From Mobula hypostoma (Eukaryota): a stretch of 64,000 bases of DNA. Under the pieces are notes generated by a model. The model saw nothing but the letters and a program-made list of their open reading frames with translations, did no database searches and was not told the origin of the DNA. Shown here piece by piece: positions 12,416 through 56,685 of this stretch. The first letter of the stretch is position 1. Every line of letters begins with the position of its first letter. The stretch lies in contig NC_086097.1 of assembly GCF_963921235.1 (NCBI RefSeq), positions 142,850,001 to 142,914,000 on the forward strand, in the 5' to 3' direction. Position numbers and translations under genes: made by a program.

Positions 12416-12899
12416 TCCACACCATAACAAAAATGGAAAGGCTTAGCAAATGTTTAGCTCACTTTCGCTGTAATTAAAATCTGGAGATTATAGACTTCCA
12501 GTTTGACTTTTAGTATGAGATTAACAGATAAATTGATTTGCAACTTTTGAAAGATAAGTTTCACTTCCTTCATCATGACCAGTCTTAATTCTTAAATGCT
12601 TTTATGATACCTTTTCAAAATGATGCAAAATGACTCCGACCAAGATGTTACCCAAAAAAAAACATGAAAGGCATAAAGAGCTTATTGGCATAAAATGAAG
12701 GTTATTGGCAAAAGAACCAGAAACAGACATGGTGAAAAAAGTATTTATACAGTGACTGGTTAGGGTCTGGAAAGCACTTCCAGGGGTACACATGAAGATT
12801 CTTCAATTGTAAATTTCACAGGTTGGATCTTAGACAATGATGAAACAAAGTACAGAAAGGAGATAGAGAACCTAGTGTCAAGCCAGCAGTCTTTCTCTC

Positions 12900-13452
12900 A
12901 ACACAAACAAAATGCTGGAGGAACTCAGCAGGCCAGACAGCATCTGTAGAAAAGAGTAAACAGTTGATGTTTTGGGCCGAGACCTTTCACCAGGACTGGA
13001 AAGAAAGAGAAGTCAAAGTTGGGAGGGTGGGAGGAATTAATACAAGGCGGTAGGTGACAGGTAAAACTGAGAGGCGGGAGGGGTGTAGTAAAGAGCTGGG
13101 AAGTTGCTTGGTGAAAGTGATAAAAGGCTGCTGGAGAAGGGGGAAATCTGATGGGAGAAGATAGAAGACCGTGGAAGAAAGAGAAGGAGGAGCAGCATCA
13201 CAGAGAGTTGACGGGCAGCTGAGGAGATAAGGTGAGAGAGGGAAACAGGAATGGGGAATCGTGAAGGGGGGAGGGGGGCAATTACCAAAAGTTGGAGAAA
13301 TTGATGTTCATACCATCAGGATGAGGGCTACCCAGATGGAATACAAGGTGTTGCTCCTCCAACCTGAGTGTGGCCTCATCATGACAGTAGAGGAGGCCAT
13401 GGACTGACATGTTGGAATGGGAATCGAAAGTAAAATTGAAATGGGTGGCTAC
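12900..13452 (-). mobile_element. Penelope-like element 3' part with decayed hammerhead
   Basis: Reverse complement of the same terminal sequence seen at 50620-51887; hammerhead core mutated (CTGGTGA...AAAA) at 12961-12998. Confidence 0.8.
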
Positions 13453-18410: not shown

Positions 18411-18547
18411 CCCTCCTGCTGAAAGGTCTTGACCTGAAACGTTGACTGTACTTTTTTCCATAGATGCTGCCTGGCCTACTGAGTTCCTGCAGCATTATCT
18501 ATGTGTTGCTTGCATTTCCAACATCTGCAGATTTTCTCTTGTTTGTG
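18411..18547 (+). mobile_element. 137-bp Penelope terminal-repeat-only insertion headed by a hammerhead motif
   Basis: Flanked by 8-bp direct repeat ACAATATA (18403-18410, 18548-18555); CTGCTGA AAGG tcttga CCT GAAA CGTT GACTG. Confidence 0.8.
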
Positions 18548-25810: not shown

Positions 25811-27172
25811 ATATTTTCCAATGCCCTGTTAATACTACCTTCATAAATTATTCCAGCATTTTCTCTATCATTGGTGTCAAGCAAATTGGTCTATAATTCT
25901 CAGTTTTTTTAGTGAACCTATCCTTGCTAACTAACTCTCACACCACCACGCCTCCCCCATCTATGGAAACAAATGTAGAATCAATGGAGTTTCGGAAAAT
26001 GGCAACTATAGGCACTCCTTTCTGAACCCTGGGATGGTGATCATGGGATTCTAGGAATTTATCAGCTTTCAGTCTCATTAATTTCAGCAATACTTTTATT
26101 TTCTCAACTCACGCTAATATTTTCAAGTCATCATTGACTCTAATCCTGTTGGCCTTTACCATCTCCTCTGAAGAAGACTACACAGAAGAACTGCTAAAAG
26201 TAGACATGAAATGCTTCTTTGACTTCTCTGCCACTTTATTTTTCCCTGATAGAACTTTTTTAAGCCTCAGTAAGTTAGGGGTCCACATAAACTTTAGCTA
26301 ACTTACGTTTTACAAATCTATTGAAGATTTTAGAATTTGCTTTCTGTTTCTCACTGATTACTTCTGTATTCAACTTTTCCTTTACTTATTAATACTTTTG
26401 ACCCTCCTTCACTGAATCCTGAAATGTTCCCAATCCACAGGTTTATTGTTATACTGGTAATATTAGATACCTTTTCCTTTGACCTAATACCCAAAATGTT
26501 AACTGCTTATTCCTCCCATAGATGCTGCCTGACTTGCTGAGTTCCTCCAGTATTTTTTGTGTCACAAAGATTTCTAGCATATGCAGGACTACTGTGTTTA
26601 CCATCCCACACTTCTCAAGATAGCCAGGGCTGGTCTATTTTTCCTAGTTCCTCTTTGCTTTAATTAACGCTTGTTATTCAATTCACCAGGCTAATGTTCT
26701 AACAGAGAAAAAACTTATCTTTCTCCAGTGCTGATGCCATTACCATAATGAATCGAAACCCATTCATTCACACTACTCATTGAGCCATATATTCAACTCT
26801 TTGATCTCATCGATTTGATTTTAACACATACTGCTCAGGTAAGGATAATAGCCTTTGTTGTTCTGCTTTCCAATATATCAATCTAATCTCTCATCAATAA
26901 AACACCATCTTTGATAATACCTGATTGTTAGCCCAGATCTTGTATTCACAATTGTCTGACTTACAGACAAGACTGCTATCCTTAAGCAACAGCAATACAC
27001 AAAGTCCAGTGTATATCATTTAAGTGGGTAAATTAACTACAGAAAGCAAGCATTTCATTTGTAACAGAGCTTGTGATGGAGAATCAATGCTTGTCGTAGC
27101 CATATCTGTGACTCCTCAACAGTACTGCCATATCTTCTAGGTAAAAATTTTTATAAGTTTTCAGTCACTCAC

Positions 27173-28104: not shown

Positions 28105-28303
28105 ATATACAAATTCTGGAGGAACTCAGCAGGCCAGGCAGCATCTATGGAAAAGAGTACAGTTGAGGTTTCAGACCGTACTGTCAAAGGTCTTGGCTCA
28201 AAACGTCAACTGTTCTCTTTTCCATAGATGCTGCCTGGCCTGCTGAGTTCCTCCAGCATTTTGTGTGCATTGTTTGGATTTCCAGCAGATTTTCTCCTGT
28301 TTG
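28105..28303. mobile_element. Palindromic Penelope terminal-repeat insertion with 14-bp TSD
   Basis: TSD AGATAGAAAGCACT at 28091-28104 and 28304-28317; arms 28116-28166 and 28206-28256 are reverse complements with 1 mismatch. Confidence 0.9.
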
Positions 28304-39999: not shown

Positions 40000-40530
40000 T
40001 ACTGCCAAGTTGAGGCTAGAAGCAGGTTAGAGGATAACACCTTGTATTCCATTTTGGTAGACTCCAACTTGAAAGCATTAAAATTGATTTCCCAAGCTTC
40101 CAGTAATCTCTCCTCTCTGTAACCCTGCCCCTTTGTTTTCCATTATCCCTCTGGCCCCATTGCCCCTCCCCCACCCATCACCCTCACATTCCCCACCTCA
40201 TTCCCTTTATCTCGTGGTCCATTACCTCTTCTATCAGATTCCATCTTTTTTAAGCCCTTTGCCTCTTCCACGTATCACTTCCCAGTATCACACATCATTC
40301 CCATTTCTCCCAACCACCTGCCCCCCACCTATCTATCTTGTCCCTCTCAGTTAGATTCACCTATCACCCACTAGTTCAAGGACCTTTCCCCCTCCCCACA
40401 ACTTTCATTGTGACTTCTGCCCTCTTTCTTTTCAGTCCTGATGAGGGGTTTCGGCCAAAATACTGACTGTTTACTTCTCTGCATAGATGCTGCTGGATTT
40501 GCTGAGTTCCTTCAGCATTTTTTTGTGTTG
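40000..40530 (+). mobile_element. Penelope-like 3' fragment with decayed hammerhead
   Basis: Pyrimidine-rich 3' region, then CAGTC CTGATGA GGGG tttcgg CC AAAA TACT GACTG (40433-40469) and the shared ATAGATGCTGC...GAGTTCC tail. Confidence 0.75.
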
Positions 40531-40594
40531 ACCTTATTTCATTCAATTAATTTCTGATGCTTCTGTGCATTCACTGCTTCTTCTACATGCTTAC

Positions 40595-40742
40595 CTATGG
40601 AATCCTTCAGTACATGTGTGAGTTTGCTCTGTCTAAATGGAATATGTTCTCTCTTGGAATCAGTAAGAGCAATAATGGTCTGCTCAAGGAAGGAGAGTGA
40701 CTTATTGATGTACATAGCTTCTCGCATCACTTGTCCTTCAGA
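40595..40742 (-). CDS. kif9: KIF9 exon: SEGQVMREAMYINKSLSFLEQTIIALTDSKREHIPFRQSKLTHVLKDSI(G)
   Basis: TTTCAG|TCT...ATAG|GTAAG, 148 nt, phase 0-1; INKSL and HIPFR-SKLT-LKDS motifs. Confidence 0.96.
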
Positions 40743-40982
40743 CTGAAATAACAAAAAAGAAGTTAGTCCAGATTAAAAGGATATGATATAATGGTTATAT
40801 TGTTATTTGTGTTTTGTTTCTGATTTATTAGTGGCAGGGAAATCAAACATTTTACAATTTGGATTTCATGTTTGCCTTATTTCATTCAGAGTTCTGCTTT
40901 TCTTTCAATATTTTTATTAGTTTCTACATAAAAGAATACAGAGTACAAAGAAGTATATATAAAAGTAGAAACAAACTGAGTT

Positions 40983-41018
40983 AGTCCTGACGAAGGGTCT
41001 CGGCCTGAAACGTCGACT
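40983..41018 (+). ncRNA. Minimal type I hammerhead ribozyme motif in a Penelope terminal repeat (core intact)
   Basis: AGTC-CTGACGA-AGG gtctcgg CCT-GAAA-CGTC-GACT: stem I AGTC/GACT, CUGAnGA and GAAA cores, stem II AGG/CCT, palindromic ACGT in place of stem III, GUC triplet ending at 41014. Confidence 0.8.
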
Positions 41019-41575
41019 GCGCCTCTTCCTATAGATGCTGCTTGGCCTGCTGCGTTCACCAGCAACTTTGATGTGTGTTGCTTGAATTTCCAGCATCTGC
41101 AGAATTCCTGCTGTTTACCAATTACATTATATCTATTCATAATAACAATCTCATTACCCCATATTCATGTAGGTTAGTCAAAGTAATATTGAAATATACT
41201 AATTTATTACAAAAAAAATCTAACCCCTACCAAGACCGAAGCTGTTTATTAAGGAGAAAAAGAAGTAAAATACCTTCTCGTATAATAAAAATTAATAATA
41301 TCCAACATCTAAATTTAAACAATGAATTAAGGGTTTTGAAAATTTTGAAAATAATTCGGAAAGGGTCCCCACAATGTTTGAAAGTCTTGACGAGATTCAG
41401 AAATTGAACAACGAATCTTCTCTAAATCTAAGCATGACATAACATCGCATAACCATTGAGCATGAGGAGGAGGAGAAACATCTTTCCATTTAAACAAAAG
41501 TGCCCTCCTAGTTATAAGAGAGCTAAAGGCCAAAATATGCAAATCTGATGTCTTCAACTTGATATCTTGTCCAGC

Positions 41576-42747
41576 TGTCAGAGGACGGTGGCTAGGAACA
41601 GACCCAAGTGTAAGACACAGACACTGTACTAGGGACAGGACTAGGATACAGGGGGATGACAAGGACATGGACAGGAAAACTAGGAACCTGGAACAGGACT
41701 GAACAAGAGAGCTAGGAGCCCGGGCTTGGACTCCGAGTCAGAGACTGGACAAGGACCTAGTACCTGGGTCTTGCCTCTGGCTCGGACCCCAGAACTAGGC
41801 AAGGATGAGGCTTGGCAGGCAGGCAGGACGAGGCTGGAGTCTTCAGGCTAGAAGCTAGAGGCTAGAGACTTGGCTTGGCTTGGCAAGAGGCTCGAGGCTA
41901 GAGGCTAGAGTCTACAGGCTCGAGGCTAGGCAAGAGACAAGGCGAGGCTTGGCAGGAGGCTGGAGACTTGAGACTAGAGGTGAGGCTGGAGGCTTGAGGC
42001 GAGGCGAGGCTGGAGGATCGAGGCGAGGCGAGGCTCGAGGCGAGGCTGGAGGCTCGAGTCTTGAGGCGAGGCAAGGCTGGAGGCTGGAGTCTTGAGGCGA
42101 GGCAAGGCTGGAGGCTGGAGTCGTGAGGCGAGGCAAGGCTGGAGGCTGGAGTCTTGAGGCGAGGCAAGGCTGGAGTCTTGAGGCGAGGCGAGGCTGGAGG
42201 CGAGGCAAGGCTGGAGGCTGGAGACTTGAGGCGAGGCTGGAGGCGCGGATCACCACCCGACAGAGGCAAGGGACAGGAAGGGACAGAACCAACTCCAGGT
42301 GACGGCAAGACGGCCTGGTTTACTTGGGTGGAGGCGAGGGACAGGAAGGGAGCTAGGTACAGGGTGGCTCCAGGACCAGGCAGCAAGACAAGGCAAGGCA
42401 AGACAAGAACTTCAGGCAAGGTGAGAGTTACCGGCAAGGCTAGGCAGGGCTTCTGGCAAAGCAAGGCGAGACAGAACTTCAGGCGAGGCGAGAGTTACCG
42501 GCAAGAGAAAGCAGGGCTTCAGGTGAGGAAACAGAAGGCAGAGGAAGGGATCCAAGGAGTAAGGACAAGAACAATCCAGCAATCATGCCCTGATCTCTGG
42601 AGGTATTTATGCAGCCAGCCCCAACTAGCATCAGCTGCCTCAATTAGCTCAACAAGGACAGAAACAGGGTAGATAGGAAAACCTGGAGCAAGGGTCGATG
42701 ACCGGACCGTGAACCGGAATACGGACTTCATGGACCGGACCATGACA
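41576..42747 (-). mobile_element. Solo LTR 1 with internal minisatellite
   Basis: TGTCA...TGACA termini; perfect 5-bp TSD CCAGC (41571-41575, 42748-42752); TATA-like GCATAAATACC on the minus strand near 42602-42612; strand inferred. Confidence 0.85.
41870..42245. repeat. GAGGC-based minisatellite (31-bp unit GAGGCGAGGCAAGGCTGGAGGCTGGAGTCTT)
   Basis: Three near-perfect copies at about 42063-42155 with degenerate copies either side. Confidence 0.9.
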
Positions 42748-43561
42748 CCAGCAACGATACCGAATAGGGCCGTCAGAGGATTAGGTTTAAAATTGACTTT
42801 GAAAAGCACAGAAAAAGTTTGAAAAACTTCCTTCCAATATTTTTCAAGACACGGACAAGTCCAAAACATATGAATTAATGAAGCTTCTCCAATATTGCAT
42901 CTGTTACAGTAGGGAGATATATCCAAATAAAAATGAGTTAGCTTATCTTTAACCATATGGACTATGTACCATCTTAAATTGTATGAAGGAATAGTGAGCA
43001 CATAGCAATGACGTATTAACCAGTTAAAAAATTTCATTGCAAGTTTCCTCAGATATTGATGTCTTTTAACTGCACGGTGCAAGTTGATCTTCCAGAGCAG
43101 GGATCTGTATTCTTTGCATCAAAGATATAGGATGGATAAGGAGAAGATGGACAACTTCCCATTATCATTGTTGATCTTCATTTATCTCTGGACCAAAACT
43201 TCGAAAAACAGATGAGGTGGTCATTTATTCCATTGCTGTTTGTGTTACCTCATGTGCAAAATCATTACCGAATTTATCGACAGTATAAAGAAACACCAAA
43301 ATGTACTAGAAAATAATGAATATGCTTAAAGCTATGGCAGGAAAGATGGCCTAACATTGGATAAATAGTGTGCTATTTTTCCTTTCAGGCAATGGACTGT
43401 TAACACTCTTAGTGGTTCTATCTCATCTGAAGATACCACTATTTACTAATATGCTCATTAAAGTACACAAGTCCTGTTTTGGGTAGCTTGACCACAAATG
43501 TCTGCCCTGGAGATTTACCATCTGGGTAAAAATCAGAATGATGCATTTGATGGTCACTCAC

Positions 43562-49581: not shown

Positions 49582-51887
49582 ACTAACAGACTGAGCCAGT
49601 TCCCCTCCACCACCACTTTCCTCTGTCTGGCAGAACTGGTCCTCATCTCAATAATTTCTCCTTCTGCTCATCCCATTTCCTTCAACCCAAAGGTGTAGCC
49701 ATGGGTACTCACAGGGGTCCCAACTATGCCTGCCTTTTCATTGCCTATGTGAAACAGTCCATGTTCCAAGCCCACATTAGGATCACTCCCAACTCTTCCT
49801 AAGCTACATCAACAACTGCATTGGTGCTGCTTCCTGCACCCATGCTGAACTCATCGATTTCATCAACTTTTCCTCCAACTTCCACCCTGCGTTCAAATTT
49901 AGATGCACCTCTCTCTACTATTTCTCGATCTCTCTGTCTCCATCTCTGGAGACAGTCTATCTACTAATATCTTTTATAAACCCACTGACTCTCACAGCTA
50001 TCTGGACTATACCTCTTCCCACCCAGTCACTTGTAAAAATGCCATCCCTTTCTCTCAGTTCCTCAGGCTCATTCCAGAACAACTGAGATGTTCCCCTTCA
50101 AAGAAAGGGTCTTCTCTTCCTCCACCACCAACGCTGCCCTTACCCACATCTCTTCCATTTTGCACATATCTGCCCTCATCCCATCCTCCTGCCACCATAC
50201 CAGTGATAGGGTTCCTCTTGTCCTCACCTACCACCCCACTAGACTCAGTGTCCAGCACATAATTCTCCATAACTTCCACCATCTCAAACAGTATCTCAGT
50301 ACCAAGTACATCTTTACTCCCTCCTCATTTTCTACAGGATCGCTCCTTATGTGACTCCCTTGTCCACTCGACCCTCCCTACTGATCTCCCTCTTGGTACA
50401 TATCCTTGCAAACAGAACAAGTACCACACCTGTCCCTACCTCCTCCCTCACTATCACAGTCCTTCCAGGTGGGGCGACACATCACCTGTGAGTCTGATGG
50501 GGTCACCTACTGTGTTCAGTGTTCCCGGTGTGGCCTCATATATAATCAGTGAGATCTGACGAAGATTGGCAGACTGTTTCACCAAGCACCTTCACTCCGT
50601 CCACCAGAAAAAGTGGGATCTCCCGGTGGCCACCCATTTCAATTCTACTTCCCATTCAGATTCTGACATGTCAGACCACTTGCCTCCTCTACTGCCAGGA
50701 TGAGGCCACACTCAGGATGGAGGAGCAACACCTTGTACTCCCTCTGGGTGGCCTCCAACCTGATGGCATGAACATCGATTTCTCAAACTTATGGTAATGC
50801 CCCCCAGCCCACCTCCTTCACCATTCCTCATTTGTGTTTCCCTCTCTCACCTTATCTCCTTACTTGTTCTTCCCCTCTCTCTTTTGCTCCTCCCCCTTCC
50901 CTTTATTCCATGGTCTTCTGTCCTTTCCTATCAGATTCCCTCTTCTCCAGCCCTTTACCTCTTTCACCAAACAATTTCCCAGCTCTTTACTTCACCCCTC
51001 CCCCTATCCTAGGAGGAGGAGAAGATGGCAACGTGACACAGTGCGCAGCGGCCACTCCGGTGAATGATATCTGTAATCTGTCAAGTAGGGTGCCGTGCAC
51101 AATCCTGATTTGATGGAGCCAGACGTGAGATCACGGAGGAACGTCAGGAGAAACTTCTGAAATGCCTTCTTCGCTGCTACTGCTACTGTGTGATCCAGAA
51201 TCTCCAGAGGAGAAGGCTCCAAGTCGTCGGGGCCAGGGTCGAAGCGCTCAGCAGAGATGGTGCTTGGTGCTCGGCGTCAGAGGGCTGGTCAGAGGCTCGA
51301 AGTTTTAGGATGGACTCAGAGTCGGCTGTGGTCGGGTGCTTCCAATGCATCGGCAGTTGTCGGCGCCTGGAGGTTTATGGCAGGGAGAGTTTCTCCCTTT
51401 TGCTGCCTGCTATCGGGACTATCGGGAGTCGATCGGAACTTTGAGATTTTTTTTTACCACATTCATGGTCTGCTCTTTATCAAATTACGGTATTGCTTTG
51501 CACTGTTTGTAACTATATGTTATAATTATGCGGTCTTGTCAGTGTTAGTCTTTGGTTTGTCCTTTTTTTTGTGATATCACTCTGGAGGAACATTGTATCA
51601 TTTCTTAATGCATGCATTTCTAAATGACAATAAACGAGGACTGAGTGTCCTTATAATCTAACCTAATCCTGGTTTCACCTATAAACTGCCACCTTGTACT
51701 TCTTCCTCCACATGCCCCACCTTCCTTCTCTGACCTCCCCCTCCTTTCCAGTCCTGAAGATGAGTCTTGGCCCAAAACCTCAGCTGTTTACTTTTTTCCA
51801 TAGATGCTGCCTGACCTGCTGAGTTCCTCTAACATTTTGTGTATATTACTTCGGATTTCCAGCATCTGGAGATCTTCTTGTGTCTGC
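49582..51887 (+). mobile_element. Penelope-like retroelement (decayed RT plus GIY-YIG endonuclease plus terminal repeat)
   Basis: GVAMGT..GPNYACLF, FLDLSVSI, YKPTDSHSYLDYTSSHP..CKNAIPFSQFLRL, TCES.GVTYCVQCSRCGLIY; TSD AATATTG at 49575-49581 and 51888-51894 inside a CR1 fragment. Confidence 0.9.
51011..51670 (+). mobile_element. Non-autonomous LINE-derived element nested in the Penelope copy
   Basis: Starts near AAGATGGC, CpG-rich body, ends AATAAA...(AATCT)n; Penelope 3' sequence resumes after it; a short tail of the same family lies at 47090-47165. Confidence 0.7.
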
Positions 51888-56189: not shown

Positions 56190-56685
56190 TCAAGAATAGG
56201 TAGAAGAGGTAAAAGGCTGAAGAAGGAAGAATTTAATAAGAGAGGACAGTGGATCATGGACTTCTTCTGTTTTTCCATCCTCCATTCTGGTTACCCTTTC
56301 AACCCTTCTCTTCTCCTCACATGCCCATCACTTCCCTCTTGTCCCTCCCCTCCTTCTTTATGGTCCACTATCTTCTCCAATTAGATTCCTTTTTTGTCAG
56401 GTTCTTCCACCTATCACCTCCCAGTTTCTTACTTCATCCTCTCATCCACCCATCCACCTTCTCCCTCACCTGGTCTCACTTATCACCTGTTAACCTGTGC
56501 TCCTTTCCCTCCTCCTTAATCTGGCTTCTGCCCCCCCTTCCTTTCCAGTCCTGATGAAGGGTCTTGGCCTGAAATATCAACTACTTATTGCCCTCCATAG
56601 ATGCTGCCTGACCTGCTAAGTTCCTCCAACATTTTGTGTGAGTTGCTTAAGATTTCCAGCATCTGGAGAATCTCTTGTGTTTATA
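56190..56685 (+). mobile_element. Penelope-like 3' region, preceded by a short inverted piece
   Basis: Pyrimidine-rich tract, hammerhead motif at 56546-56583 and shared terminal tail; 56190-56260 is the reverse complement of part of the same tract. Confidence 0.75.
56546..56583 (+). ncRNA. Hammerhead motif, core intact, stem I weakened
   Basis: CAGTC CTGATGA AGG gtcttgg CCT GAAA TATC AACTA, at the 3' end of a Penelope fragment. Confidence 0.6.

Follow-up and report, generated by a model that had tools for sequence, protein, structure and literature searches.

We found that the insertion around the hammerhead motif of the window (here, the whole stretch of 64,000 nucleotides that was analysed) is very probably the 5′-truncated pLTR end of a Penelope-like element (PLE) that is young and very abundant, and that it carries an intact hammerhead that is likely inert at this locus.

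The Hammerhead Motif

Positions 40983–41018 of the forward strand were confirmed to hold the intact core of a type I hammerhead that lacks stem III. The motif opens with the 5′ strand of stem I, AGTC (40983–40986), whose first base is the point at which the 5′ ends of the family pile up. It continues with the catalytic box CTGACGA (40987–40993), that is, C3-U4-G5-A6-N7-G8-A9 with C at N7, as judged from the sequence and from the consensus in Supplementary Figure S3 of PMC4209133. The stretch 40994–41006 comprises an unpaired A (40994) and a stem II in which 40995–40998 would pair with 41003–41006 around a CUCG loop. The next stretch, 41007–41014, was read as GAA (41007–41009; G12-A13-A14), the palindromic ACGU (41010–41013; 15.1, 15.2, 16.2 and 16.1) with positions 15.2/16.2 in the palindrome and no loop III, and C17 (41014). 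The 3′ strand of stem I, GACT (41015–41018), was assigned from sequence and fold. There are 13 nt between the CTGACGA box and GAA, and the core boxes CUGANGA, GAAA and NUH are all intact in this copy. Compared by sequence, the motif was confirmed to agree with the published PLE consensus (PMC4209133).

An earlier note on this DNA, made from the letters alone, had listed the same core nucleotides, and they match as it gave them. The palindromic ACGT that it saw in place of stem III is likewise present, and the cut that it predicted after 41014 falls at C17 of the sequence. Cleavage is thus predicted between 41014 and 41015, after C17. Positions below are numbered from C3 (window 40987) as 0, which puts the predicted cut between +27 and +28.

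An exact core descriptor (CTGAnGA, 9–16 nt, GAAACGTC) had one match in the window and none in 200 Markov-1 resamples. Across the genome (3.48 Gb) it had 89,768 matches, compared with 250 for a reversed-pattern control. The Rfam search that the earlier note had proposed gave no hammerhead at the gathering score in the whole window, and none at E ≤ 10 in 40300–41300. The stability of the fold was unremarkable (z-score = −0.37). The motif is therefore recognised by its core, and not by Rfam or by stability.

The Insertion and Its Host LINE

The motif lies in a sequence that interrupts an L1-like LINE on the reverse strand. We compared the locus with 14 further copies of this LINE (93–95% identical), and all 14 were continuous and without the insert. 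These uninterrupted copies set the boundaries of the insert at 40978–41116, which is 139 bp. It is read as a 5′-truncated PLE retrocopy on the forward strand that consists of the 3′ part of the pLTR, with the hammerhead and the optional PLE “tail” of about 35 nt (41080–41116, forward strand). A span of 40976–41116 had been proposed earlier; its end is retained, and its start is moved to 40978 by the empty-site comparison. The same 14 copies bear out the earlier placement of the insert in a LINE 3′ UTR.

On one side of the insert are the distal 3′ UTR and A-rich end of the LINE (40898–40977, reverse strand; 89–90% identity to other copies). On the other side are the proximal 3′ UTR and the end of ORF2 (41117–41575, reverse strand), with a stop near 41327. 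The insert is antisense to the LINE and lies about 210 bp beyond the ORF2 stop. We found no target duplication of the insert, the longest word common to the two flanks being 5 nt. The G at 40978 is foreign to both the target and the family sequence. We take the host LINE to be an L1 from the pattern of its ORF2 C-terminus and its A-rich end. Pfam had 0 matches for two short protein pieces, the 83-aa LINE piece included. No host gene was identified at the locus in the list of open reading frames.

The same LINE is also interrupted by a solo-LTR-like insert of 1,172 bp (41576–42747), which has TG…CA ends, a 5-bp target duplication (41571–41575 and 42748–42752) and a long internal purine-rich tandem repeat.

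The Penelope-Like Element Family

The Penelope origin suggested by the earlier note was supported by the long copies of the family, which encode a reverse transcriptase (RT), a linker and a GIY-YIG motif. Upstream of the end piece, these copies have a pyrimidine-rich 3′ UTR and then the ORF, and they encode a CX4CX2C linker before the endonuclease. The 513-aa open frame of one long copy, L196, matched Pfam RVT_1 above the cut-off (E = 1.9 × 10−7). Its GIY-YIG motif is present, with a Pfam score of 16.6 bits (E = 0.0096) that is under the cut-off of 22.6. A PDB search with the element ORF gave 0 matches. The element has features of the Neptune/Nematis type, and Neptune is tentatively preferred on the grounds of its distribution in vertebrates.

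The family is young, uniform and abundant. A 25-nt anchor taken from the insert had 69,329 exact matches genome-wide, and all 40 of the genome matches that were scored were 98–100% identical to the insert. An ORF probe identified 30 loci, and in 7 of them the hammerhead and tail unit lies in sense about 1,010 nt upstream and is followed by the ORF; in such full-length elements the stretch equivalent to the tail (41080–41116) lies ahead of the ORF or forms its start. Compared with 6 of these 7 tandem units, the window copy shows 3–6 differences in 138 nt, and its 36-nt motif is identical to that of four of the seven full-length tandem pLTRs. The earlier description of the copy as young also holds, with 3 mismatches in 138 nt to four full-length pLTR copies. 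The first in-frame ATG of the tandem units is 88 or 167 nt past C3.

Two of these seven, the adjacent units L206 and L207 (G000:C21, about 74.009–74.016 Mb), lie 3,497 bp apart and have intact hammerheads. This arrangement would be a natural way to put two hammerheads on one RNA. At the same locus the open frame passes through the hammerhead into the ORF, the stop codon of the upstream unit being altered.

Eight older relatives of the same PLE end, 71–83% identical and with broken or missing cores, are found in the window. Six are at 12899–12997 (reverse), 18414–18544, 26511–26603, 40434–40509, 51750–51872 and 56547–56683 (the last five forward). The other two, 28122–28178 (reverse) and 28186–28287 (forward), make up an inverted-arm insertion. 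Related sequence is present in contigs of several other organisms.

To describe the copies, we took as an unbiased sample the 100 anchor matches that come first on contig C1, with 6 duplicate rows (overlapping loci) removed. All core bases were kept in 47 of the 69 sampled copies that cover the motif. Among the motif-spanning copies, the changes were mostly at CpGs, and the flanks were as invariant as the core; the intactness of the core therefore reflects youth. The earlier note had taken the intact CpGs of the window copy as a sign of possible catalytic competence, and by these counts they mark youth only.

Stem II, Folding and Covariation

The earlier note had formed stem II from AGG and CCU. 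We found that this register is disfavoured by the folding model, and that an unpaired, bulged A40994 followed by GGGU/GCCU with a CUCG loop is more likely. The pair probability of stem II in the insert was 0.61–0.68 for the new register and 0.02 for AGG/CCU. We aligned 34 copies (24 of them distinct), of which 30 had been chosen by their match to the core pattern; the proportion of stem II cells paired in the alignment was 96.9% as GGGU/GCCU, compared with 79.2% as AGG/CCU. The difference arises because the last base of stem II alternates between U and C opposite G. The closing pair of stem II is G·U in the window copy and G–C in 9 of the 24 distinct rows; in the unbiased sample, position 41006 is T in 56 copies and C in 13. 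A G·U closing pair also occurs among the published rows of minimal hammerhead ribozymes (min-HHRs), whose consensus has one unpaired base after A9 (PMC4209133). A40994 corresponds to this single unpaired base.

No two-sided covariation of stems I and II was seen in the 24 distinct rows of the very uniform 34-copy alignment. The stem changes in it were one-sided (G·U/G–C) only, and shuffles scored as well as the data. Because the family is young and uniform, the covariation test is uninformative.

For the monomer, the predicted fold pairs GACG with CGUC, which would bury the core. This locked fold had an energy of −10.0 kcal/mol, compared with −6.0 for the fold with an open core. A strand-swapped dimer of the active type had −9.5, compared with −20.0 for two locked monomers. 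These ViennaRNA energies omit the tertiary contacts of the core and Mg2+, and the active fold is understated accordingly.

Proposed Mechanism and Activity at the Locus

We propose that the protein of the element cut the LINE 3′ UTR, as may be supposed from the biochemistry of the anole PLE. Reverse transcription would have begun at the end of the tail (41116) and halted at −8, a few nt beyond the foot of stem I. In a tandem transcript, a pair of hammerheads with a spacing of about 3.5 kb may swap strands through their ACGU palindromes. The strand-swapped dimer, likely aided by protein, would cut after C17 and so process the precursor RNA. A lone copy such as that of the window has no partner in cis, lies antisense to the LINE, and is predicted to have its GACG folded onto CGUC.

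The copy in the window is probably inert, because a fold that locks the core is predicted and there is no intact partner in the window. The catalytic competence once suggested for this locus is thus disfavoured by the modelled monomer and by the search of the 64-kb window, which gave no second intact motif. In Schistosoma, the min-HHR monomer was inactive and cleavage by the dimer was low (PMC4209133). The anole PLE hammerhead cleaved only with its protein, and the anole RNA-seq data held no reads that start or end at the cut site (PMC11167929).

Alternatively, this copy or many of the dispersed copies might cleave host transcripts in vivo, in trans or with the aid of protein, in which case the family would serve as a set of RNA cut sites spread across the genome. 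Dimers in trans are conceivable, given a total of about 90,000 motifs. The motif of the window is identical to that of four of the seven full-length tandem pLTRs, and intact cores occur about once every 39 kb, so that long pre-mRNAs could carry two copies on the same strand. Moreover, the anole hammerhead does cut when its protein is present (PMC11167929). However, the predicted locked fold, the lack of an intact partner within 64 kb, the conservation of the core, which is no greater than that of the flanks, and the anole RNA-seq result (PMC11167929) all speak against such cleavage, and we consider it improbable.

Ends of the Copies

We then considered where the copies end. At the 3′ side, the 100 sampled copies divide into 49 that reach the end of the tail and 51 that stop at +86 to +105, which is 25–40 nt earlier. 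Frangieh et al. tied two PLE 3′ ends to two RT start sites (PMC11167929). At the 5′ side, 32 copies extend beyond −300, 12 begin between −300 and −31, 37 between −30 and +9, and 19 between +10 and +62, with a few assignments near −13 over-extended into inverted arms. An inverted arm was found upstream in 39 of the 100 copies. Target duplications of at least 8 nt flank 14 of 24 short solo copies; the window copy has none, which counts against our main reading. Some solo copies (L016, L158, L166 and others) have the short 3′ end and 9–15 bp duplications, and they occur beside tail-bearing ones. In most of the fold-back pairs listed, the tail is present on one of the two arms only.

The 139-bp unit might instead be an independent non-autonomous element, SINE-like or a retrozyme, copied from short transcripts. 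In its favour, 37 of the 100 copies start between 30 nt upstream of the core and 9 nt inside it, so short units are common, and retrozymes have been proposed to be derivatives of PLE pLTRs (bioRxiv 10.64898/2026.07.22.740005). However, the 5′ ends are heterogeneous, 32 of the 100 reaching more than 300 nt upstream, the window copy is a monomer and not a tandem array, and short and full-length copies differ by just 3–6 of 138 nt, which makes this origin very unlikely. Identity with a tandem retrozyme was rejected, since an array of at least two units is absent and the window has a single unit.

That the hammerhead is a fixed part of the 3′ UTR of the LINE family, or a chance match, could be suggested by its position inside a LINE and by the lack of an Rfam match, but both are refuted by the 14 LINE copies without a hammerhead at the site (0 of 14) and by the genome-wide core count (89,768 matches compared with 250), and the hammerhead lies on the strand opposite to the LINE.

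Junctions at the Foot of Stem I

The 5′ ends were also counted genome-wide. A junction was defined as three non-family bases followed by 27–28 family bases. We found 1,842 junctions at −4 (the first base of stem I, window 40983), 373 at −16, 453 at −8, 218 at +8 (within stem II), 148 at +28 (the first base beyond the cut) and 106 at +33. The reversed-pattern controls gave 0 for all six positions. The foot of stem I thus has a 4- to 17-fold excess over the other five positions, in a scan that sampled six positions with patterns unequal in CpG content and subfamily reach. At the predicted cut there is no excess (148 compared with 106 at +33), with the caveats that microhomology moves junctions upstream and that palindromes at the cut site may mask head-to-head junctions.

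A manual check covered 40 of the 1,842 junctions at −4 (rows 4–43 of the list). An inverted arm is joined in 23 of them, another 7 are solo copies with a duplication and 10 are solo copies without one; of these last 10, two resemble, by eye, the upstream sequence of another subfamily and one joins the element ORF. By this check, the −4 peak consists mostly of real junctions. No report of a 5′-end peak at the foot of stem I was found in the portion of the literature that was searched.

The genome gives no sign of cut RNA as template, there being no excess at the cut site. By analogy, the absent +28 peak would fit either uncut templates, as with the anole element in vitro (PMC11167929), or circles that were cut and then re-ligated, as has been proposed (PMC4209133). 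We tentatively suggest that the copies record a stop of RT at the foot of stem I and not the cut, that the templates were uncut or re-ligated, and that the hammerhead delimits a SINE-sized unit without cleaving, a reading that is possible rather than probable. As to the cause of the −4 peak, we regard a 5′ end of the element RNA at the foot of stem I, whether a start site or a processed end, as the likeliest, with slightly less than even credence. Release set by structure might also be responsible, though we hold this with some doubt, and other causes or an artefact are unlikely.

Several other accounts were considered. The GAG that the first 30 matches appeared to have at their 5′ junction was a product of query selection. 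Copying of a cap G was unsupported, since G was not dominant before the junction in 100 listed matches at −4 (about 25 with G, as judged by eye); no dominance of G before the −8 junction was noticed by eye among the 100 matches listed. Just upstream of stem I (L217:465–490) there is a pyrimidine tract followed by CAG that resembles a 3′ splice site, and an intron of Drosophila Penelope ends at the foot of stem I (PMC4209133). A splice acceptor at this point is possible but was unsupported, as the 40 junctions have no common upstream exon. No GT..AG joint was listed in the contigs searched for splicing at the foot of stem I. Fold-back at stem I was also not supported as the cause of the pile-up, because inverted arms have inner ends that range between −16 and +53, and the fold of the cDNA plus its flank is not closed at −4.

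Significance

On its own, the copy in the window is of little weight, since there are about 90,000 such passengers. The family, by contrast, is a good test system for the role of PLE hammerheads in vivo. It is young and uniform, includes tandem copies whose open frames are long, and has junctions that can be counted genome-wide. If some dispersed copies did cut host pre-mRNA, the hidden load on long introns would be large; nothing here shows cutting.

Comparison with Known Systems

Cervera and De la Peña (2014) described the min-HHRs of PLEs (PMC4209133). Common to these and to the motif of the window are the type I topology with a U-rich flank, CUGANGA with one unpaired base and a stem II that starts with G, the GAAA-C-G-U-C palindrome without loop III, and a short stem I. 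The copies are in both cases mainly scattered, single and truncated, with some inverted pairs. However, stem II has only 4 pairs in the family studied here and is closed by G·U in this subfamily, and the family is very uniform. Its 89,768 motifs compare with about 4,000 in coelacanth and about 9,000 in Xenopus, counts obtained with different descriptors (PMC4209133). No shark or skate term occurs in supplement file 2 of that paper.

Craig et al. (2021) described the Neptune and Nematis EN+ PLEs (PMC8557442). [quoted passage not shown] The PLE tail is described both there and in PMC11167929.

Frangieh et al. (2024) studied PAc, a Poseidon PLE of Anolis carolinensis (PMC11167929). PAc likewise has its hammerhead at the junction of pLTR and ORF, and two 3′ ends one tail-length apart. 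It belongs to another clade, since Penelope and Poseidon are described as lacking the linker that is present here. In addition, its ORF starts inside stem II, whereas the first in-frame ATG here is the downstream one noted above (88 or 167 nt past C3).

Non-LTR retrozymes (PMC7229834; bioRxiv 10.64898/2026.07.22.740005) resemble the family in their type I hammerhead and in being short, high-copy, PLE-linked repeats. They form tandem arrays of fixed-length units, whereas the copies here are solo, variably truncated ends of a coding element. The hammerheads of the retrozymes of Cervera and De la Peña (2020) are canonical, unlike the minimal one here (PMC7229834). Li et al. (2026) reported retrozymes in one chondrichthyan genome (bioRxiv 10.64898/2026.07.22.740005), and this was the only relevant report found for cartilaginous fish in the literature searched. 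Axolotl retrozymes reach up to 120,000 copies according to a section heading of PMC7229834; the copy number of the present family is high and is no record. Judged by the features of sequence and context that were tested, the motif of the window belongs to the known class of PLE min-HHRs.
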